From positions 1-21,129 of the forward strand of contig QMMC01000064.1 in NCBI GenBank assembly GCA_003647065.1: DNA of 21,129 bases, written 5' to 3'. Position numbers and translations under genes: made by a program. Every line of letters begins with the position of its first letter. The stretch's first letter is position 1. A model generated the notes under the pieces. That model made no database searches. It saw only the letters and a program-made list of their open reading frames with translations, and had not been told where the DNA came from. This document shows, in pieces, positions 3,732-15,448 of this stretch. The DNA is from Deltaproteobacteria bacterium (GTDB lineage Bacteria > Myxococcota_A > Polyangia > Polyangiales > B10-G4).

Positions 3732-4232
3732 TCAGTCAGCGCAGGTCACGGTGATGCCGTGCGTGTGGTCGCCGGCGGACGTGGAGGTCGCCGTCACGGT
3801 GGTGCCGGCGGCGAGATCGGTGAAGTTCGCAGCCGTGATGGTCACGCTGTGACTGTGGGAGCTCGAGCCCATGATGTCGTAGGTCTTCTCGGCGCCGGCC
3901 GTGACGTCCGCAGCCGAAACCGTCATGGCGTGCGAGTGGTTCGAGCCAATCTCTGTGTTCCAGCTGCCGCAGCCGGTGCCGGTATCGCCGGCGGTGCCGG
4001 TGTCGCCGGCGGTGCCGCTGTCGGTGGGCGTGCTGCTGTCGGTGGGCGTGCTGCTGTCGGAGCCCGTGCCGCTGTCGGTGGGCGTGCTGCTGTCGGAGCC
4101 CGTGCCGCTGTCGGTGGGCGTGCCGCTATCGGTGACAGGGTCGTCGTCGCCGCAGCCGATGACTGAGACGAGTCCAACGCCGGCGCCGACCGCAACGAGG
4201 GAGCTAAGAAATTCGCGTCGTGAGTTGATCAT
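3732..4232 (-). CDS. Tat-signal lipoprotein with tandem-repeat linker and C-terminal triple-HxH domain (paralog 1)
   Basis: N-terminus MINSRREFLSSLVAVGAGVGLVSVIGCGDDD carries a twin-arginine motif plus a lipobox Cys. The linker (TPTDSGTGSDSS)n is encoded by 18-nt tandem repeats. The C-terminal ~80 aa (GCGSWNTEIGSNHSHAMTV...SHSHSVTI...DHTHGITVTCAD) has three HxH motifs bounded by two Cys. It is a close paralog of 6574-7104. The six-frame ORF extends to 4349, but the Tat-motif Met at 4232 is the better start. Confidence 0.6.
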   Translation of the reverse strand: MINSRREFLSSLVAVGAGVGLVSVIGCGDDDPVTDSGTPTDSGTGSDSSTPTDSGTGSDSSTPTDSSTPTDSGTAGDTGTAGDTGTGCGSWNTEIGSNHSHAMTVSAADVTAGAEKTYDIMGSSSHSHSVTITAANFTDLAAGTTVTATSTSAGDHTHGITVTCAD

Positions 4233-4382
4233 GGAGCCATTCTTAACGGCATCCGTGCGTTTGTGCACACATAATTGAGCATGGCGATCGAAATTAAGTT
4301 CGGCGCCAATCCCGAAGGCCCGAGATAGACCGTACCAATTTGCGGACAAGGAGAGCGCGGGCCTCGCGGCGGAACGCCGCGT

Positions 4383-6573: not shown

Positions 6574-7104
6574 TCAGGCGCCGCACGTCACCATGATCTC
6601 GTGGCGGTGACCGCCACCGCTGGTACCCGTCTGGCTCGAATCCTTCGTCACCGTGCCGCCGCCGGCGAGGGTTGTGAAGTCTCCTGCGTTCAGGCTCACC
6701 GTGTGATTGTGGGTGGCAGTGCCCATGAGGTCGTAGCTCTTGGCGACGCCGGCCGTCACATCCGCTTCCGACACCGTCATCGCGTGCGAGTGGTTCGTGC
6801 CGATGTTCACGGTGACCACCGCGCAGCTCGCCGCCATGGCCCCGTCGCTCGCATCGGCGCCGCCGCCGTCGGTCGCGCCGCCGTCGGTGCCGCCGCCGTC
6901 GGTGCCGCCACCATCTGTGCCGCCGCCGTCTGTGCCGCCGCCGTCGGTGTCGCCACCATCGGTGCCACCTCCGTCGGTGCCGCCACCATCGGTGCCGGTG
7001 TCGGCGGGGGCGTCGTCGTCGCCGCAGCCGATAACCGTGACGAGGCCGACGCCGGCGCCGACCGCGAGAAGGGAGCTAAGGAATTCACGTCGAGTACGAT
7101 TCAT
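6574..7104 (-). CDS. Tat-signal lipoprotein with tandem-repeat linker and C-terminal triple-HxH domain (paralog 2)
   Basis: N-terminus MNRTRREFLSSLLAVGAGVGLVTVIGCGDDD. The linker (GGTDG)n is encoded by 15-nt tandem repeats. The C-terminal domain (SCAVVTVNIGTNHSHAMTV...THNHTVSL...GHRHEIMVTCGA) is collinear with the paralog at 3732-4232. The ORF extends to 7140; the Met at 7104 matches the start of the paralog. Confidence 0.6.
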   Translation of the reverse strand: MNRTRREFLSSLLAVGAGVGLVTVIGCGDDDAPADTGTDGGGTDGGGTDGGDTDGGGTDGGGTDGGGTDGGGTDGGATDGGGADASDGAMAASCAVVTVNIGTNHSHAMTVSEADVTAGVAKSYDLMGTATHNHTVSLNAGDFTTLAGGGTVTKDSSQTGTSGGGHRHEIMVTCGA

Positions 7105-7167
7105 GGCGCAAAGAATAGCCGGATACGGCCCTTCGCGCATCTAATCGGGCACTTCGAGGCCTCCGGG

Positions 7168-7680
7168 TCAGCGCTCTCCGGGCTTCGGGAGGGCGTCCCG
7201 GGACTCGAAAACGGGCACCTTCGCCAGGGATCGGAGGTGATCTTTCGGCAGGCGGTGGGCCCGGGCTCCGGCGAGGACCAAGTCGAGGTACTCGCGCCGC
7301 GGAGGGATCACCTCGGCCGACCGGAACTCCGCGCGCACGACGTAGAGCCAGGCTTGGGTCTCCCCGGCGGGGACCCGCACGGTGACCGGAGCGTCTCCCC
7401 GGGAGTATCGACCCGGGTGCCCTTCCTTCTCGTCGAGGGCCAGAAGGCCGCCGTCGTCGACCTCGAGGACGACTCCGGGGAGTTCGACCCCCGCGCGCCG
7501 GTGCACATTGGCCGCGCCGCCCTTTCGCGCAGGCGACCGGTAGTTCCAGACGAGCTCCCATCCCGAGAGCAGCCCCTGGTAGGCGTTCAGCACGTTCCCG
7601 TCGCCGTGACCGCGGTCTTCCATCCACCGGCGCAGATCGGGCAGGTGCATGTTGGAGCCGTAGGCGAAGACGCGATGCAT
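7168..7680 (-). CDS. Gamma-glutamyl cyclotransferase (GGCT/C7orf24-type)
   Basis: The 170-aa product starts MHRVFAYGSNM (GGCT signature YFAYGSNL). KGGAANV matches HGGIATI of human GGCT. LDEKEGHPGRY matches LDEQEGVKSGMY, including the catalytic Glu of the LDxxEG block. Its ATG shares one nucleotide with the TGA of the upstream gene (TGATG at 7678-7682). The six-frame ORF has a 157-aa N-terminal extension, rejected because it overlaps the upstream CDS in another frame. Confidence 0.75.
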   Translation of the reverse strand: MHRVFAYGSNMHLPDLRRWMEDRGHGDGNVLNAYQGLLSGWELVWNYRSPARKGGAANVHRRAGVELPGVVLEVDDGGLLALDEKEGHPGRYSRGDAPVTVRVPAGETQAWLYVVRAEFRSAEVIPPRREYLDLVLAGARAHRLPKDHLRSLAKVPVFESRDALPKPGER

Positions 7681-8620
7681 CACGGCTCGGTGCTCGTCTC
7701 TCCTGGCGGATCCACCTCGAATCGTGCCGCCAGCCTTTGCACCCACCGCCAGTCGAGGATCTTCTCGACGCGAAAGAAGCACGCAAACGCAACGCCGGTG
7801 AGCTGGTAGACGAAGCCAATAGCCATCATCAGCAACACGCCCCAGTGGAAGCCCCAGATGAGCACGGCCCAGACCACGCCGGCTCGCCGGTGAAGGAGCG
7901 CGGCCGGGGCTCCCCACTCGATGATCAGGCTCAGCCAGGCCATGGCGGCGAAGAAGAGCGGGTACGAGAGCAGCCAGGCGCCGAGGGGCGAGTACACGCT
8001 GCCCAGCTCGATTTTGCGCACGTTGTCGTAGGCGATGTAGTTGCGGAGGTTCACCTCGCTGACGAACTCGGCGCCGCTGTTGCCGTACTTGGCGAAGGCC
8101 GCCAGCAGATAGACGGCCGTGCATACGATGGCGATGAGGCGGATGGCCCACCCGTAGCGCCCGCTCTCTTCGCCCTTCTTTACTCGGCCCGCGCGCGAAT
8201 CGAGGGAGATGGCGTCGGCCGCTGGGGCGAGGGCGAGGACGATGATCTGCAAAGTCATCATGTGGTCGACGTGCAGGATCATCCCGAAGGAGTTCGAGTA
8301 GGTGAGCACCCAGAGCTGCAGCGCGGCGAAGATCGGGCCGGTGATTCGATAGCGGTAGCCAAAGGCGAAGCAGGCTGCGAAGACGATGGTGAGTATCACC
8401 AGGGCGATGACGACCGCCGGCAGGAGAGGCCGCGGCGCGAAGGTGGCGAGGCCAACGGGCCGAAAGAAGGCCTGGTCGACGTGGGCGTAGCTCATCAGGA
8501 AGGGCGAGCGAATGATCAGGTAGATCAGCGCGTAGCCTCCGACGAGCACGCGCAGCATACCGAGGCGCTCGGCCGGGGCCGAGGGCATGAAGACCCGGTC
8601 CATGGCGCCGATCACGGCGT

Positions 8621-8624
<4 letters not shown>
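7680..8624 (-). CDS. Polytopic integral membrane protein (about 8 TM), family unassigned; possibly HTTM-like
   Basis: The 314-aa product is very hydrophobic with multiple predicted TM helices (LRVLVGGYALIYLII, LLPAVVIALVILTIVFAACFAF, IRLIAIVCTAVYLLAAF, VLLMMAIGFVYQLTGVAFACFF). Its start ATGA overlaps the upstream gene stop at 8621-8624. Its stop overlaps the GGCT start. Any HTTM-like fold is a guess from size and topology only. Confidence 0.65.
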
Positions 8625-9073
<449 letters not shown>

Positions 9074-9104
9074 CGCTGGCAGATTATGCTTACCATCCGC
9101 CGCC

Positions 9105-10298
9105 ATGGGGAGCCTCTCCATTCTTTCGGCGTTGATGATCCTGGCCGCGGCATCCGTCTCGGCGCAGGCCCCGGACCCTGCCGACGGGGGCCTCGACGCG
9201 TCGGCGGATGCGGGCGATGCGGGCGATGCGGGCGAAGGCGGCGATGCTGCCCCGCGCGCCGACGACGAGCTGCTCCCGGCGATCGTGGAACTTCCGGCCG
9301 AGCCCCTCGACCTGGTCGTCGGCGTCGCGGGCAGTGAGCCCTTCGTCATCGTGGGGGACGGCCGGCTTCGAGGGATCAGCATCGAGACCTGGGAGAAGGT
9401 GGCCTCGGAGCTAAACATTCGTTATGAGTACCGTCCTTATCCGAACGCCCTCAGTTTGGTGAACGCCGTCGCCCGGGGCGACGTGGACGTGGGGGTCGGG
9501 CCCCTCAGCATCACCAGCGAGCGGGCCTCTCGCGTCTCCTTCACCCAGCCCCACTTCTCGGGCTCCCTCTCCATCGCCGCCCGTCCAGCCGAGCGCGGGA
9601 TCTTCGGCCACCTATCGCCGCTCTTCCGACGGGCGTTCCTCACGGGCCTCGCCATCCTCCTCCTCGTGCTGACCTTCGTGGGGGTCCTCTTCTGGCTCGC
9701 GGAGCGACGGGCCAATCCCGAGCACTTCCCGCCCTCACCCCTCAGTGGCATCGGCAACGGTGTCTGGCTCGCGGTCGTGACGATGACCACCGTCGGCTAC
9801 GGTGACCGCTCACCGATGACTCCCCTCGGACGGGTCATCGCCGGGGTGTGGATGCTCATCGCGCTGCTGACCACGTCGTCGCTCACGGCGTTCCTGGCGA
9901 CGGCGCTCACGCTCTCGACCCTCGACCACGCGGCGATCGACACCATCGAAGACCTCGAGGGAAAGCGCGTCGCGGTTCCCCGGGGAACTGCCGCGGTGCC
10001 CTTCGTGCGCCGCCATGGCGGCCGCGTGGTCGAAGCCGACAGCGTCCAGGACGCCATGCGCCTCGCCAACGAGGGCGAGGTCGCCGCCACGGTCTTCGAC
10101 ACTCCGGTCCTCGCCTACGAGCTCACGCAGCATCCCGACCTCGCGTTGGTGCTCTCGCAGCACAGCTACGAAGACGTGGGCTACGGCTTCGCCGTGGCCA
10201 TTGGCAGTGAGTTTGAGGAGCTCATCGACATGAAGCTCCTCAAGCTCAGGGAATCGGCGGGCATGGACGTGATCCGTACCGGGTGGCTGGGGCCCTGA
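9105..10298 (+). CDS. Prokaryotic ionotropic glutamate receptor-like ligand-gated K+ channel (GluR0-type): SBP lobe S1, M1, P-loop, M2, SBP lobe S2
   Basis: Signal peptide MGSLSILSALMILAAASVSAQA, then an acidic low-complexity stretch (DAGDAGDAGEGG). A type-3 solute-binding-protein-like segment follows. M1 is LTGLAILLLVLTFVGVLFWLA. The pore helix plus K+ selectivity filter is VWLAVVTMTTVGYGD. M2 is VIAGVWMLIALLTTSSLTAFLATAL. A second SBP half follows (KRVAVPRGTAAV...TPVLAYEL). A GTG at 9063 is an alternative start. Confidence 0.8.
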   Translation: MGSLSILSALMILAAASVSAQAPDPADGGLDASADAGDAGDAGEGGDAAPRADDELLPAIVELPAEPLDLVVGVAGSEPFVIVGDGRLRGISIETWEKVASELNIRYEYRPYPNALSLVNAVARGDVDVGVGPLSITSERASRVSFTQPHFSGSLSIAARPAERGIFGHLSPLFRRAFLTGLAILLLVLTFVGVLFWLAERRANPEHFPPSPLSGIGNGVWLAVVTMTTVGYGDRSPMTPLGRVIAGVWMLIALLTTSSLTAFLATALTLSTLDHAAIDTIEDLEGKRVAVPRGTAAVPFVRRHGGRVVEADSVQDAMRLANEGEVAATVFDTPVLAYELTQHPDLALVLSQHSYEDVGYGFAVAIGSEFEELIDMKLLKLRESAGMDVIRTGWLGP

Positions 10299-10301
10299 AC
10301 G

Positions 10302-11588
10302 GTGCATCCGCTTCGCCCCTACCTGGCCCGGGCTCCGCGCGCCGTCTTCGTCGTCTACGCCATCACTGCGGCCTTCGCGACGTACTTCGGCATGTACGCC
10401 TTCCGGAAGCCCTTCGCCGCCGCGACCTTCGAAGGGCAGTCCTTCTTCGACACCGGCCTCGACCTCAAGACGGCCTTCGTCATCAGCCAGATCCTCGGCT
10501 ACACGCTGAGCAAGTACGCGGGCATCAAGGTCGTCTCGGAGATCACCCCGGGCCGCCGGGCGCTCACCCTCGTCTCCCTCATCGCCGTCGCCGAGCTCGC
10601 CCTCGTGGGTTTCGGTTTTCTCCCGATGGCGCTCATGTCGGTGTCGCTCTTCGTCAACGGCCTCAGCCTCGGCATGATCTGGGGCTTGGTCGTGCGCTAC
10701 CTCGAAGGCCGCCAGAGCTCGGAGCTCCTCCTCGCCGGCCTCAGCACGTCCTTCATCCTCGCCTCCGGCGCCGTCAAGGACATCGGCCGGTGGTTGATCA
10801 CGGACCACGGAGTGGCCGAGACCTGGATGCCGGCGGCGACCGGCGCGATCTTCTTCCCCGTGTTCATCCTGGCGGTCTGGCTCCTGGATCAGATCCCCGA
10901 CCCCACAGACGAAGATAAGAGGACCCGCGTCGAGCGGCGCCCTATGGACGCGGCCGAACGGCGCGCCTTCTTGAAGCGCTTTGCTGTCGGCCTCGTGCCC
11001 CTCTTCGGGGTCTACATCGCGTCGACCGCCTACCGAGACTTCCGCGACAACTACGGCGTCGAGATCTTCGCGGCCCTCGGCTACGAGGGGGAGCCTGGCA
11101 TCTTCACGCAGTCCGAGATCTGGGTCGCCCTCGGCGTGCTCGCGGTCCTCGCCAGCCTGAACCTCATCAAAGACAACCGCCGGGGCCTCGCCGCAGCGTT
11201 CGGGGTGATGATCGTCGGCGCCGTGCTCATCGGCGGGTCGACCGTCCTCCTCGATGCCCAGGCCATCGACGGAATGACGTGGATGATCCTCGTCGGCCTC
11301 GGCTCGTACTTCGTCTACGTGCCCTTCAATACGGTCCTCTTCGACCGCATGATCGCGGCGACTCGGGTGCAGGCGACGGCGGTCTTTGCGATCTACATCG
11401 CCGATGCCCTCGGCTACACCGGCTCCATCGGAGCCCAGCTCTACAAGGACTTCGGTGACCCGACGTCCACCCGCCTCGGCTTCTTCCGGAGCTTCTCGTA
11501 CGGCTTCGCGGTCGTGGGTGCCGTTTTGCTCGTCTTGTGCCTGCTTTACTTCTGGCGTCGAAGCGGGCCCGCGTCCGAAACGGCGTGA
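10302..11588 (+). CDS. Polytopic membrane protein, transporter-like (about 12 TM, two-halves organisation), family unassigned
   Basis: A 428-aa hydrophobic protein. Its GTG start is 4 nt after the stop of the GluR0-like gene, so co-transcription is likely. There are two blocks of about 6 TM each, separated by a charged loop (DPTDEDKRTRVERRPMDAAERRAF). An alternative start is M31 (10392). Confidence 0.65.
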   Translation: MHPLRPYLARAPRAVFVVYAITAAFATYFGMYAFRKPFAAATFEGQSFFDTGLDLKTAFVISQILGYTLSKYAGIKVVSEITPGRRALTLVSLIAVAELALVGFGFLPMALMSVSLFVNGLSLGMIWGLVVRYLEGRQSSELLLAGLSTSFILASGAVKDIGRWLITDHGVAETWMPAATGAIFFPVFILAVWLLDQIPDPTDEDKRTRVERRPMDAAERRAFLKRFAVGLVPLFGVYIASTAYRDFRDNYGVEIFAALGYEGEPGIFTQSEIWVALGVLAVLASLNLIKDNRRGLAAAFGVMIVGAVLIGGSTVLLDAQAIDGMTWMILVGLGSYFVYVPFNTVLFDRMIAATRVQATAVFAIYIADALGYTGSIGAQLYKDFGDPTSTRLGFFRSFSYGFAVVGAVLLVLCLLYFWRRSGPASETA

Positions 11589-11718: not shown

Positions 11719-13008
11719 ATGTCGAAGGATTCGTTGACGGTCACTGACAACCGGACCGGGCAGACCTACGAGCTCCCCGTCGATGATGGGACCATCCGGG
11801 CGATAGACCTGCGTCAGATCAAGACGTCCGACGACGATTTTGGCCTCATGGCCTACGACCCCGCGTACAAGAACACCGCGTCGACGAGGTCCAACGTCAC
11901 CTTCATCGACGGTGAAAAGGGCATCCTCGAGTATCGGGGCTACGGCATCGAAGAGCTCGCCGAGAAGTCGAGCCACCTCGAGGTCAGCTATCTGCTGGTG
12001 CACGGCGAGCTGCCGACGAAGACCCAGCTCGATGCCTGGACCCACGAGATCACGAATCACACCTTGGTCCACGAAAACATCCGGGAGCTGGTCGACGCGT
12101 TTCGCTACGACGCCCACCCGATGGGTATCCTGGTGAGCACCGTCGGGGCGCTGAGCACCTTCTACCCGGACGCGAAGGACATCCAGGACCCGGAGGCCCG
12201 GCGCCTCCAGATGCACCGCCTGATCGCCAAGGTCCCGACTATCGCGGCCTACGCTTATCGCCATCGCCGCGGCCTGCCCTACGTCTACCCGGACAACGAC
12301 CTCAGCTACTCCGGCAACTTCTTGTCCATGATGTTCAAGATGACCGAGCCGAAGTACAAGCCGAGCCCCGCCATCGAGAAGGCCCTCGACGTGCTCTTCA
12401 TCCTGCACGCGGACCACGAGCAAAACTGCTCGGCGTCGGCGATGCGCGCGGTCGGGTCGAGCCACGTCGACCCCTACAGCGCGACGGCGGCAGCCTGCGC
12501 GGCGCTCTACGGTCCCCTCCACGGCGGCGCCAACGAAGCCGTCGTGCGCATGCTCGGAGAGATCGGCAGCGTCAAGAACATCCCCTCGACTCTCGAGAAG
12601 GCGAAGAACGGCGAGTTCCGCCTGATGGGATTCGGCCACCGCGTCTACAAGAACTACGACCCCCGGGCGAAGGTCATCAAGAAGCTCGCCTACGAGGTCT
12701 TCGACGAGGTCGGCAAGAACCCCCTCATCGACATCGCCGTCGAGCTCGAGCGGATCGCCCTCGAAGACGAGTACTTCGCCAAGCGCAAGCTCTTCCCCAA
12801 CGTCGACTTCTACAGTGGCCTCATCTACCAGGCGCTGAACCTGCCGATGGACATGTTCCCGGTGCTCTTCGCCATCGGGCGGACGCCGGGGTGGCTGTCC
12901 CAGTGGGAAGAGATGCTGACCGACCCCGAGCAGAAGATAGCGCGGCCGCGGCAGATTTATCTCGGCGAGCGCGGGCGTAGCTACGTGCCGGTCGACAAGC
13001 GCGGGTAG
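11719..13008 (+). CDS. gltA: Citrate synthase (type II, hexameric Gram-negative type)
   Basis: A 429-aa product with canonical citrate synthase blocks (GYGIEELAE, HRLIAKVPTIAAYAYR, HADHEQNCSASAMRAVGSSH, LHGGANEAV, GFGHRVYKNYDPRA, DFYSGLIYQALNLP). A strong SD (taggagagacgagcgc) precedes the ATG. Confidence 0.95.
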   Translation: MSKDSLTVTDNRTGQTYELPVDDGTIRAIDLRQIKTSDDDFGLMAYDPAYKNTASTRSNVTFIDGEKGILEYRGYGIEELAEKSSHLEVSYLLVHGELPTKTQLDAWTHEITNHTLVHENIRELVDAFRYDAHPMGILVSTVGALSTFYPDAKDIQDPEARRLQMHRLIAKVPTIAAYAYRHRRGLPYVYPDNDLSYSGNFLSMMFKMTEPKYKPSPAIEKALDVLFILHADHEQNCSASAMRAVGSSHVDPYSATAAACAALYGPLHGGANEAVVRMLGEIGSVKNIPSTLEKAKNGEFRLMGFGHRVYKNYDPRAKVIKKLAYEVFDEVGKNPLIDIAVELERIALEDEYFAKRKLFPNVDFYSGLIYQALNLPMDMFPVLFAIGRTPGWLSQWEEMLTDPEQKIARPRQIYLGERGRSYVPVDKRG

Positions 13009-13010
13009 GC

Positions 13011-13108
13011 GTCAACAAGAAGGCGCCGCGTAGGCGGCCCGAGGCGGGAGCGCGACGCAGTCGCGCAGAGCCGACAGGCCGACCGTAGCGGCGCTGGGAG
13101 TGCGCAGT
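13011..13108. repeat. REP-like GC-rich intergenic element, copy 1 (inverted relative to copy at 15203-15447)
   Basis: The ~98 bp starting 2 nt after the gltA stop is the reverse complement of units A2+B1 at about 15250-15345 (e.g. tcaacaagaaggcgccgcgtaggcggcccgaggcgg.agcgcgacgcagtcg.gcagagccgacaggccgaccgtagcggcgc.gggagtg). It contains short GC hairpins (GCCGC-GTAG-GCGGC; CGCGAC-GCA-GTCGCG). Confidence 0.7.
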
Positions 13109-13217
13109 CGCCTGAAACGCGATACCCGGCGCGATCTGGCCTCGCTTGGGTCCCGCGTTCCAACCGACGCTGTTGCGTTCGGCTGGGCGGTGGCTCTGCT
13201 GCGGGTGAGTGTTGTAC

Positions 13218-13430
13218 GGCGACGGACACGGCGACGGATGCCGCGACGGCCTCGGACACGGCGACGGCCTCGGACACGGCGATGGACACGGACACGGACC
13301 CGGACACGGCGACGGGAACGCGAACGGGAACGGGAACGGGAACGGGAACGCGAACGGGAACGGGAACGGGAACGGGAACGGGAACGGCCTCGGCGACGGC
13401 CACGGCGACGGCCACGGCCTCGGACACTAC
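13218..13430. repeat. Hexanucleotide microsatellite (GACGGC / GGAACG units), intergenic
   Basis: About 210 bp of imperfect 6-nt tandem repeats (…ggacacggcgacggc… then (gggaacg)n, about 15 near-identical units). All six frames give low-complexity peptides (GDGHGD/NGNGNG, RERERE, TGTGTG, PVPVPV). It lies between convergent genes. Confidence 0.75.
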
Positions 13431-13440
13431 CGTCCTCGTA

Positions 13441-14034
13441 TCATGCGCCAGCTCGTCGAATGGCGATCGGTGTCTTGACCGACCCATCGAAGACGAAGCC
13501 GCCTGCCGAGGGGTGTCCCGGCCCGGCAACTTCGACGAGGGTGCCGTCCGGCGGCAGAGATCCCTCGAGTTCGACGAGCAAGAGATGGTCGTCGTCGACC
13601 TTCGCCGTGCCGGTCGCGTCGTGTACGAAGAAGACCGGCGGCCGCGCGTCGAAGGGGTCGTGGTTTGCGGCCCGATGGAGCTCGCCGCGAACACGTACGA
13701 TGCCGAGGGTCGCGTGTGCGGTCTGGACGAGACCAACCCCGTCCACCGTCGCCGATACGCGTGAGACCTTCCTGCGCGCACGCCAAGCGCTGAACGCGCG
13801 ATGCGCTCCGTGGGTGAGGGCAATCGTGACGATGACCAGGGCGGGAACGCCGAAGAGAAGTATCAGCGACCAGGCACCGAAATGCGCGTGGTGATGAGTC
13901 TCGAGTAGGTAGCCACGGGGCTGCGCTTGGAGACGGCCGACCGCGTGAAGGACGAAGGCCGGCAAGATCGTCAGACCCATCCATCGGGAGTTGACCCGAT
14001 CGCGGAGGGTCGCCGTGGGGACGTGAGAGTCCAT
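13441..14034 (-). CDS. Membrane-anchored protein (2 TM plus about 110-aa soluble C-terminal domain), unknown function
   Basis: MDSHVPTATLRDRVNSRWMGLTILPAFVLHAVGRL and FGAWSLILLFGVPALVIVTIALT are two TM helices. The start ATG at 14034 is preceded by GGAG. The six-frame ORF extends to 14262, giving alternative Mets at 14079 and 14262. The plus-strand ORF 13282-13764 is antisense and is rejected. Confidence 0.45.
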   Translation of the reverse strand: MDSHVPTATLRDRVNSRWMGLTILPAFVLHAVGRLQAQPRGYLLETHHHAHFGAWSLILLFGVPALVIVTIALTHGAHRAFSAWRARRKVSRVSATVDGVGLVQTAHATLGIVRVRGELHRAANHDPFDARPPVFFVHDATGTAKVDDDHLLLVELEGSLPPDGTLVEVAGPGHPSAGGFVFDGSVKTPIAIRRAGA

Positions 14035-14239
14035 CTTGAGAACAGTCTCCTGGTGCCGAGTTGGGTCGAGGTAGCGCATGCGGCAGGACAGTGCAGCTCG
14101 TATGCCAAGCGCGTTGTCGCGTGAGTTTGGGGCTTCCCGTTGTTTGGCGGTGGATTTCGCCCGGAGCGGTCTGTCGCTGCGAGCGTGACGCCCCGGTCGC
14201 TCTTTCTCCCGTGGGGCCGCCTCCCGCCGGCCCGGTCCC

Positions 14240-14316
14240 GATCTTCCGATCTTCATCTTCACGATCTTCAGATTCGGGGAAATCCGGACGGGGGGAGATC
14301 TGGGGGGAGATCTGGA
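14240..14316. promoter_or_regulatory. Direct-repeat motifs (GATCTTC x3; GGGGGGAGATCTGG x2) in promoter region of minus-strand gene 13441-14034
   Basis: The sequence ccGATCTTCcGATCTTCatcttcacGATCTTCagattc is followed by ggggGAGATCTGGggggGAGATCTGG. AGATCT is palindromic. The motifs lie about 200-280 bp upstream of the start codon. Confidence 0.35.
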
Positions 14317-14367
14317 CCCGGTGGACGGTGAACGGCGTCTTCCCGCTGGCCGGTGAATTCCCCCGGG

Positions 14368-15126
14368 CTACTCCCTTTCGGCGGCTGGATCGGCCGCGGC
14401 TTCATCCGGGGCCGCTGCGCCCTCCGCACTCCACTCGCGGTCGATGCGCACTTGGGCGTGTTCGAAGAGCCCCATGAGCGCCACCGATCCGAAGTCGTCT
14501 GCGATCTCGCCGAAGCTCCTCAACTCGATGGCGCCCCAGTTTCTCGAGTTCACCGGCATGGTGCAGACGGCCCGCAGCTCGGTGTCGAGCAAGAAGGCTT
14601 GTCCGTCTAGGTGGCCGGAACGATAGCTACCGCTCGCGGTCCGCACGGGAGCCAGCAGCCTGTCGACACGGATGACGGTGAGCACGACCGGCGGCTCTTC
14701 GACGGCGCCGGCGGCGAGCGCCTCTCGCAGTCGCGGCCCGTCGTCGCGCCCGAGGAAGACCCGCAGCCGGTCCGCGTGGCCAAGGGCGGGGATGGTGTGC
14801 CCGAAGCCGCGTTCCAAGACGCCGACCACGCTCGGGATGACGTCGGTGGTGAACTGCGGCGAGCGCACCATCACGAAGCGCTCCCGTCGCGGGGCGGCGA
14901 GGACTTCCGCAGGGCACCGGTCCCCGACGCTCGGGTCGAGGGCGGCGATCGCGCGGTCCCAAGCGGCGCGCGCCGGGGCGCCCGCCGCCTCGGCCTCGGT
15001 CGCCGCCGCGAGGGCCTGCTCGCGAAGTTCCGGGGATACGCCTTCCGCCTCAGCCGCCGTCTCGTCGCAGCCCGCCCAGAGCAGCATGACCAACGCGCAA
15101 CCAATGATCCGCCTCGGATTTCCCAT
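14368..15126 (-). CDS. Lipoprotein, unknown function
   Basis: MGNPRRIIGCALVMLLWAGCDE carries a signal peptide and a lipobox. The product is 252 aa with no recognisable catalytic motif. The ORF extends to 15144. Confidence 0.5.
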   Translation of the reverse strand: MGNPRRIIGCALVMLLWAGCDETAAEAEGVSPELREQALAAATEAEAAGAPARAAWDRAIAALDPSVGDRCPAEVLAAPRRERFVMVRSPQFTTDVIPSVVGVLERGFGHTIPALGHADRLRVFLGRDDGPRLREALAAGAVEEPPVVLTVIRVDRLLAPVRTASGSYRSGHLDGQAFLLDTELRAVCTMPVNSRNWGAIELRSFGEIADDFGSVALMGLFEHAQVRIDREWSAEGAAAPDEAAADPAAERE

Positions 15127-15202
15127 GGGTCGCGATGGTACCACCGACGGCGCGACTACGCGGTCGTGCGCACCTCGGACGGTTCAGTCGGGAACGGCAC
15201 GG

Positions 15203-15447
15203 CACTCCCGGCGCCGCTGCGGTCGGCCTGTCGGCTCTGCACGCCTGCGCACTCCCGGCGCCGCTACGGTCGGCCTGTCGGCTCTGCACGACTGCGTCGC
15301 GCTGCCGCCTCGGGCCGCCCTACGCGGCGCCTTCTTGTTGAGGCCTCCGTCGCGCTGCCGCCTCGGGCCGCCTACGCGGCGCCTTCTTGTTGAGGCCTCC
15401 GTCGCGCTGCCGCCTCGGGCCGCCTACGCGGCGCCTTCTTGTTGACC
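15203..15447. repeat. REP-like element copy 2 with tandem amplification (unit A about 47 bp x2; unit B about 52 bp x3)
   Basis: Unit A (cactcccggcgccgct.cggtcggcctgtcggctctgcacg) appears twice. Unit B (gtcgcgctgccgcctcgggccgcc(c)tacgcggcgccttcttgttgaggcctcc) appears three times head-to-tail, with the last copy truncated. The array lies immediately 3' of the esterase gene stop (15449). It has the same orientation relative to that gene as copy 1 has to gltA. Confidence 0.75.
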
Positions 15448-15448
15448 C

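Follow-up and report, generated by a model that had tools for sequence, protein, structure and literature searches.

Does the GC-rich sequence that follows the citrate synthase gene of an uncultured Deltaproteobacteria bacterium belong to that gene, as a terminator or a regulatory RNA, or is it one copy of something that spreads through the genome? The window considered here is the whole stretch of DNA analysed, 21,129 nucleotides of contig QMMC01000064.1 with a G+C content of 66-72%, in which an initial annotation had described a repeat just past the stop codon of gltA, with a second copy in reverse complement further along. The repeat proves to be dispersed, its hairpin is conserved, its copies are biased in orientation and in position relative to stop codons, they nest in one another, and their presence or absence differs between paralogues and between relatives. 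We think it quite probable that the sequence behind gltA is a copy of a lineage-specific family of non-autonomous palindromic mobile elements, with a unit of about 92 nt, which falls in the general REP/REPIN-MITE class.

The two sites in the window

The gltA gene (11719-13008, plus strand; Pfam Citrate_synt, E 9e-138) encodes a protein that is 100% identical to RLB54822.1, from a metagenome-assembled genome (MAG) named Deltaproteobacteria bacterium, and about 80% identical to the proteins of Sandaracinus, Polyangiales and other Myxococcota MAGs. Its relatives in species-representative genomes reach at most 73% identity, are spread over many phyla and were of no use for synteny. The gene ends in a TAG codon at 13006-13008, and the first base of the repeat unit comes 3 nt later. 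The repeat had been drawn at first as 98 bp starting 2 nt after the TAG; the repeat itself is real, but the conserved unit as delimited by our covariance model is the 92-nt segment 13012-13103 on the plus strand, 3 nt after the TAG, which matches the model with 110.5 bits (E 1e-25).

This left copy is complete. It consists of a 10-nt A-rich head, TCAACAAGAA (13012-13021, plus strand), which is unpaired in the consensus fold and near-invariant between copies; a long, imperfect hairpin of 74 nt (13022-13095, plus strand), with 22 consensus pairs in 4 helices according to RNAalifold and the central hairpin GCGCGAC-GCA-GTCGCGC; and an 8-nt tail, GGGAGTGC (13096-13103, plus strand), which is unpaired and conserved. 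Folded alone, the copy forms one long imperfect hairpin of -60.4 kcal/mol (z -2.8). The small GC hairpins that had been remarked on are indeed present, but all of them are parts of this single imperfect hairpin spanning the unit. The tail is followed on the same strand by GCAGTCGCC (13104-13112), which resembles the first 8-9 nt of a 3' half-unit (compare the half-unit starts GCAGTCGCGCAGAGCC) and is possibly the relic of an outer copy. CTGAAAC is found exactly 8 nt past the tail in two copies, this one (window 13104-13119) and one on contig L018 (2210-2224); both belong to the GCGCTGGGAGTGC sub-subfamily, and the shared word may mark a longer 3' end within that sublineage. From the end of the unit to the next confident gene lie 1.26 kb of window sequence (13104-14367) with weak coding signal, including an ORF on the minus strand (13441-14262) that looks like a membrane protein and is without a Pfam or NCBIfam match.

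A repeat search of the window joins the left site to the right one by two pairs of inverted arms, 13005-13060 with 15397-15452 (56 nt) and 13033-13110 with 15242-15319 (78 nt); both pairs are 95% identical, in agreement with the high identity first reported for the two sites. Cores of 47 nt and 35 nt each occur three times in the window, where 100 shuffles lead one to expect none.

The second copy had been placed at 15250-15345. The repeat is there, in reverse complement, but the site is larger, covering 15202-15445 on the minus strand, and is a compound of half-units and a complete unit rather than a simple copy. Read along the minus strand, it begins 3 nt past the TAG of the esterase gene with a 52-nt 5' half-unit (15394-15445) made up of the head, the left arm and the left central stem, then GGAGGCC; a second 5' half-unit of 52 nt (15342-15393), identical to the first (52-nt period, 98-100% identity), comes next, followed by a complete inner unit of 93 nt (15249-15341; covariance model 110.3 bits, E 1.2e-25) and by an extra 3' half-unit of 47 nt (15202-15248) that holds the central loop, right central stem, right arm and tail. 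Tandem Repeats Finder resolves the same site into 2 copies at a period of 47 nt and 2.9 copies at one of 52 nt. When the compound copy is folded, its outer half-units pair with each other.

The gene that abuts this cluster (15449-16483, minus strand; TAG at 15449-15451; GC3 0.90) encodes a PHB-depolymerase-like esterase/lipoprotein. Its label as an esterase is supported by homologues in JGI, which carry the name poly(3-hydroxybutyrate) depolymerase, and by a weak NCBIfam match that falls below the family cut-off (e_dPHAscl_type1, E 2.5e-8). Immediately upstream of it sits a bacterial homologue of the vault protein, a 709-aa ORF (16511-18640, minus strand) with Major Vault Protein domains (MVP_shoulder, E 2.5e-28, plus Vault_3 and Vault_4). 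On the other side a co-directional gene for a putative lipoprotein (14368-15144, minus strand; GC3 0.84), for which searches of Pfam and NCBIfam returned no family, begins 57 nt from the cluster's tail end, and the cluster may be intra-operonic, lying between the esterase and putative lipoprotein genes. Both sites thus have the same orientation relative to the gene upstream, as had been noticed at the outset, and each starts 3 nt after a TAG.

Anatomy of the unit and conservation of its fold

An alignment of 28 complete copies (A1, on which the conservation of head and tail given above is also based) yields a consensus unit with the head YYAACAAGAA, an imperfect hairpin of about 75 nt and the tail GG(G/T/C)AGTGC; the apical hairpin reads GCGCGMC-GSA-GKCGYGC, and head columns A4, C5, G8, A9 and A10 are invariant. 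RNAalifold arranges the consensus into 22 pairs in four helices, and by explicit count 99.0% of the cells at these positions are paired, compared with 94.2% after column shuffles and 22-50% in controls with slid partners. Compensatory changes are found at four pairs, 45/51 (CG 15, AU 13), 17/79, 18/78 and 28/68, and it is through such changes that the hairpin has been conserved. On the sense strand of the upstream gene 26 cells are G-U and 2 are A-C, an excess that is only suggestive, the G-U cells being mostly at one inherited position (42/54).

Subfamily 1 carries the motif GTAG twice, once in each internal loop and on one and the same strand; subfamily 2 (L004, L007) has other bases in its place. 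Several 5' flanks also read GTAG, because of TAG stop codons. A search of window positions 12500-16000 against Rfam (15) found no family over either site at E <= 5.

Dispersal and host range

An exact 23-mer of the unit, AAGAAGGCGCCGCGTAGGCGGCC, is found on 23 contigs of a single JGI metagenome, Ga0164313. When the covariance model R1 was searched against these contigs and the window, 197 kb in all, it recovered 33 complete units (E <= 2e-17; 78-114 bits) on 24 contigs, along with truncated and internally deleted copies. This supports the dispersed family that had been proposed from two copies, and it refutes a purely local duplication in this contig, a reading for which the 21-kb window, with just two sites, would have been the argument: 23 more contigs carry the exact 23-mer, and they hold 31 further full units. 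Judging by their G+C content, the hexamer microsatellites that they have in common and the repeat itself, the 23 metagenome contigs presumably come from the same organism as the window. Many of the Ga0164313 contigs terminate inside a repeat, as is expected of a family that breaks assemblies.

Beyond this material the searches were negative. R1 gave nothing significant (best E 0.05) in 465 kb drawn from other Myxococcota, from the nearest relatives by gltA and from unrelated genomes of high G+C; the exact 23-mer has 0 matches in 185,579 species-representative genomes, and a degenerate pattern of the unit has 0 matches in viral contigs.

Position and orientation relative to genes

The placement of the copies was compared with genes called by length and third-position G+C (GC3). 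In 13 of the 33 clusters a co-oriented, high-GC3 gene has its stop codon between -4 and +6 nt of the head's first base; on the tail side a stop within 10 nt is seen in 0 of 33, and the orientation bias first noted in the window is accordingly family-wide. About 6 more heads adjoin the stops of long ORFs with somewhat lower GC3. Clear Pfam domains are present in 7 of 10 upstream genes, among these GroEL, porphobilinogen deaminase (hemC), a Ser/Thr kinase and a radical-SAM enzyme. The stop before the head is mostly a native TGA or TAG, 2-6 nt away; in 4 cases it is a TAA created inside a head variant (YTAAC). The first paired base follows about 14 nt after the stop codon. None of the 33 clusters lies inside a validated gene. 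In about 6 cases (the right cluster of the window, L002, L011, L014, L015 and L018) a co-directional downstream gene starts 57-307 nt past the tail, a spacing that fits apparently intra-operonic copies in sense orientation. The bias toward this orientation and toward stop codons is strong but not absolute, about 6 clusters being exceptions, with the head near the start of a gene or the element antisense to the neighbouring genes. REPs are likewise found within 20 bp of the 3' ends of ORFs, and GTAG REPs sometimes provide TAG stop codons (PMC3733652).

A series of imperfect palindromes of roughly 60-140 nt, immediately 3' of ORFs and in the orientation of those ORFs, would also describe integron-type attC sites trailing their gene cassettes, the more so as the head contains YYYAAC, which resembles the R'' box of attC (RYYYAAC). 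We find this scarcely credible here. The 3' end is without the complementary GTTRRRY (R') box and the head is unpaired; the upstream genes are scattered core chromosomal genes such as gltA, groEL and hemC, in both orientations, and not unidirectional cassette arrays; and the copies nest within one another.

Nesting and evidence for mobility

At least 8 clusters show two 5' halves in succession, then two 3' halves. The outer arms of L001 and L002, GGCGCCAC on the left and GTGGCGCC on the right, pair with each other (AC..GT), and the inner unit has GC..GC; at L004 and L007 a unit of subfamily 2 lies inside one of subfamily 1; and in 5 clusters the two outer halves agree in their central-stem variant and differ from the inner unit. 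Since the outer halves match each other and not the unit between them, a unit must have inserted into the apical loop of a resident unit, and the nested insertions carry a 6-7-nt duplication of the apical-loop sequence GSAGKC. Independent tandem duplication was considered as the source of these arrays of half-units and rejected, the outer halves agreeing in both subfamily and central-stem variant, unlike the inner unit. The right cluster of the window (15202-15445) is by all appearances of this nested, compound kind; unequal numbers of half-units, as found there, require further deletion or duplication in addition. Other rearranged copies include a tandem array of four units with a 106-nt period (L014) and two that have collapsed internally (L011, L018b).

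Differences in occupancy are seen both within the genome and between relatives. Four paralogous regions of about 640 bp (L012, L013:6068-6701, L019 and L020), 86-88% identical and encoding a small four-helix-bundle protein like the 23S rRNA intervening-sequence protein, differ in the presence or absence of a unit at two sites. The unit comes immediately after the TAG in L019, L020 and L012; in L013 the TAG is followed by a native terminator-like hairpin without a unit. Elsewhere in the window, two paralogous genes on the minus strand (3732-4349 and 6574-7140) are 74-76% identical over blocks of about 150 nt and contain internal 15-18-nt tandem repeats that encode low-complexity Gly/Asp/Thr-rich linkers.

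The orthologous gltA and esterase sites are occupied in close relatives, with an architecture other than that in the window. In assembly GCA_030591785.1, whose contig JAUVAI010000004.1 has 93% nucleotide identity to the window over 11.3 kb, the gltA TAG is followed by a pair of 5' half-units, then by one complete unit, part of another 5' half-unit and a microsatellite, where the contig ends. In a relative at 88% nucleotide identity a 5' half-unit of a different subfamily stands after the esterase TAG, again at the end of the contig. Further away, in relatives at 84-86% protein identity for gltA and 72% for the esterase, just 4-38 nt follow the stop. Upstream of gltA, the order HTTM-domain protein, small ORF, a variable insert, DUF5690/MFS transporter and gltA (window 7680-11588) is kept in relatives L104, L105, L107 and L108; the region downstream is not conserved among relatives, and synteny stops exactly at the gltA stop codon.

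At one locus (L018:2095-2230) an 8-nt direct repeat, CCGCGTCC, flanks 'GTAGCCC + unit', and each copy of the repeat precedes an in-frame stop, CCG CGT CCG TAG upstream and CCG CGT CCC TGA downstream. It looks as if the insertion there duplicated the end of the gene and supplied it with a new TAG; an 8-nt duplication of this type, with a new stop, occurs at no other site. Hexamer microsatellites, (CCGTTC)n, accompany several copies (window 13216-13427, L001:69-146, L014:19-90 and 1115-1138, L022:7-102, L108:11550-11634). At L001, L014, L022 and the gltA orthologue L108 the tract lies 4-16 nt past the element tail and has the orientation of the element; the tract in the window lies about 110 nt from the left unit and is inverted.

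That last detail can be read another way. With two inverted copies, heads outward and 2.1 kb between them, with synteny lost right after gltA and with the microsatellite at 13216-13427 inverted relative to its usual orientation beside element tails, one might suppose that the copies form the inverted termini of a composite element of 2.4 kb, or that they mark an invertible segment (13012-15445) with the genes in between on it. However, the family-wide rule that the head stands 3 nt after a stop already accounts for each copy, each site is independently occupied in relatives, on separate contigs, no transposase was found between the copies by Pfam and NCBIfam searches of the ORFs at 13441-14262 and 14368-15144, and there is no flanking duplication. 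That the inverted pair bounds a composite transposon, or a segment able to invert, is unlikely, and we would attach only a very small probability to either.

A more substantial alternative, if still an improbable one, is that the unit is a cis-acting regulatory or termination RNA element of the 3' UTR, maintained by selection and spread mainly by recombination or gene conversion rather than as a selfish mobile element. The near-invariance of head, central hairpin and tail would suit such an element, as would the fixed spacing that puts the first paired base about 14 nt after the stop, the preference of the G-U pairs for the sense strand and the continued occupancy of the orthologous gltA and esterase sites in relatives. 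It does not sit well with copies nested in the apical loops of other copies, with the tandem array (L014), the internally deleted copies (L011, L018b) and the copies at gene starts or in antisense, or with the family's absence from relatives whose flanking genes are 72-86% identical at the protein level; nor is there a match in Rfam. These are the marks of a proliferating repeat, though function and mobility can coexist.

Transcription signals and proposed function

The initial annotation had offered the element as a terminator or a stabiliser of mRNA 3' ends. On the sense strand the hairpin runs into GGGAGUGC, with no U-tract, so that for gltA the unit does not have the form of a canonical intrinsic terminator. 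It is the opposite strand that looks like a terminator, with TTCTTGTTG after the hairpin and 5 T in the 8 bases after the stem; a terminator-like hairpin with a T-rich tail is called at each of the window's four heads, and on the antisense strand only. Stabilisation of mRNA is plausible.

We suggest that the unit would be transcribed as part of the 3' UTR of the upstream gene, and since no U-tract follows the hairpin, sense transcription would not be terminated by it. In the gltA and esterase mRNAs it would then form a stable 3'-UTR hairpin, which might hold up 3' exonucleases or be a site of processing, and this is the most likely role of the copies in the window. On the other strand the hairpin is followed in the RNA by UUCUUGUUG and could terminate convergent or antisense transcription, so that a second role, insulating the gltA and esterase genes from convergent transcription, is possible. 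We propose that copies between co-directional genes are kept mostly in sense orientation because an antisense copy would terminate the operon transcript and a sense copy need have no polar effect. About 14 nt past the stop, the first paired base in the sense transcript would fall at the edge of the terminating ribosome; REPs of E. coli within about 15 nt of a stop codon reportedly stall ribosomes and lower expression.

Proposed mechanism of spread

Two kinds of insertion site would explain the distribution of the presumed mobile family: straight after a stop codon, with the head first and in the sense orientation of the gene, or in the apical loop of a resident copy, where the product would be a nested compound with the 6-7-nt GSAGKC duplication. 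The element would be moved by an enzyme encoded elsewhere. Target-site duplication was sought at the borders of whole clusters, where the longest shared flank words average 4.75 nt, no better than the 4.22 nt of mismatched controls, the one exception being a single 8-mer at L018:2118. The head TCAACAAGAA and tail GGGAGTGC are not complementary, and pairing begins at position 11. A DDE-type MITE is disfavoured, given that target-site duplication does not go beyond chance and that the ends are not inverted repeats.

The 5' flank is weakly enriched for ..AG-S-C-C, and the element itself ends in ..AG-T-G-C; a fixed upstream target motif was rejected, this weak bias being all that there is. This resembles single-strand transposons of the IS200/IS605 type, whose cleavage motifs at the left flank and the right end are related (TTAC and TCAA in IS608), although the duplication at nested sites does not fit their chemistry. 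A 5' flank like the element's own 3' end, together with the lack of a general target duplication, suggests a single-strand enzyme of the HUH/RAYT type rather than a DDE transposase. Searching the approximately 197 kb by tblastn with sequences of IS200 TnpA and the E. coli RAYT as queries, which is a weak test, returned nothing below E 0.9. We know of no single transposition chemistry that covers both the duplication-free ordinary sites and the 6-7-nt duplication of the nested ones.

A fuller scheme can be put together from these elements, though we regard it as speculative and unlikely as a whole. The family would be a self-targeting mobile hairpin with an insertion rule not described before, moved as a single strand by an HUH-like or other enzyme acting at ..AG-S-C-C. 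New copies would be placed either exactly where the stop codon gives way to the 3' UTR or within the apical loop of a unit already present, and the family would be kept genome-wide as the base of the hairpin, about 14 nt past the stop, tunes translation termination and mRNA decay, with the other strand insulating against convergent transcription. On this scheme the frequent (CCGTTC)n tracts right behind the tail, and the variable extensions on the 3' side, might even be taken as signs of a copying process whose 3' end is imprecise.

Significance

The analysis adds a well-delimited REP/MITE-like family for an uncultured Myxococcota-like lineage, in which such repeats have hardly been described. 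The family explains why assemblies in this lineage break at the ends of genes, as the contigs of the two closest relatives do, ending inside the repeat. Its traits are clean, with a start 2-6 nt after the native stops of core genes (gltA, groEL and hemC) and nesting in apical loops with matching outer arms, and these make the family a good system for studying how palindromic repeats choose their insertion sites; it could also be used to probe whether stop-proximal hairpins regulate translation termination outside E. coli. It is useful for annotation and assembly, and not surprising in kind.

Comparison with known systems

The antisense strand shares with intrinsic (Rho-independent) terminators a very stable GC hairpin with TTCTTGTTG directly after it, whereas on the sense strand, that of the abutting gene, the hairpin is without a U-tract; and unlike terminators that have evolved locally, the unit is a dispersed repeat whose copies are about 93% identical.

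The palindrome-associated, non-autonomous derivatives of IS200/IS605 are similar in design, being centred on hairpins and having neither inverted termini nor target duplication, and the resemblance of the flank motif ..AGSCC to the element's own 3' end, ..AGTGC, has a parallel in the TTAC and TCAA of IS608. The present unit differs from them in having one central hairpin rather than two subterminal ones, in the 6-7-nt duplication of nested copies and in the weakness of the flank motif, and no TnpA was found with it in the weak test described above.

With MITEs such as the Correia elements of Neisseria, ERIC/IRU and the pneumococcal RUP and BOX elements, the family shares a length of about 100 nt, a long hairpin if transcribed, restriction to a lineage and polymorphism of presence and absence; those elements are also co-transcribed with neighbouring genes, as ours presumably are. 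Unlike MITEs, it has no target-site duplication at ordinary sites, lacks inverted repeats at its ends and has no insertion sequence known to be related to it, and it follows a strong rule of orientation and of position relative to stop codons.

The family also bears a close likeness to the REP, BIME and REPIN sequences of Proteobacteria, although the initial description of the element as REP-like needs some adjustment. Like these, the family is dispersed, extragenic and present in many copies, forms GC-rich imperfect palindromes that are often arranged in compound clusters, is without target duplication and has GTAG motifs in its main subfamily. As described for REPs, it is found mostly downstream of ORFs, within about 20 nt of their 3' ends, and sometimes supplies the stop codon (PMC3733652). 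What sets it apart from REPs proper is its size and the structure of its ends, and perhaps the position of GTAG. A REP is a palindrome of 20-40 nt or an inverted doublet of such palindromes, whereas this unit measures 92-93 nt, folds into one 74-nt hairpin with 4 helices and has an asymmetric, conserved head and tail. GTAG is on the same strand in both arms, which therefore cannot be an asymmetric REP and its inverted copy; and where REPs carry a conserved, unpaired GTAG (or CGTC) at one end, GTAG is here in the internal loops and is missing from subfamily 2. REPs proper go with a cognate RAYT, a Y1 HUH transposase whose gene is typically flanked by REPs, and none was found for this family in the approximately 197 kb by the weak tblastn search. 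The clusters, too, are nested (5', 5', 3' and 3' halves) rather than built of alternating inverted REPs as in BIMEs. We therefore regard the sequence behind gltA as representing a new family in an established class, the interspersed palindromic repeats of bacteria, and not a new kind of genetic element, the notable traits of the family being its stop-abutting sense orientation and its nesting in its own apical loop.
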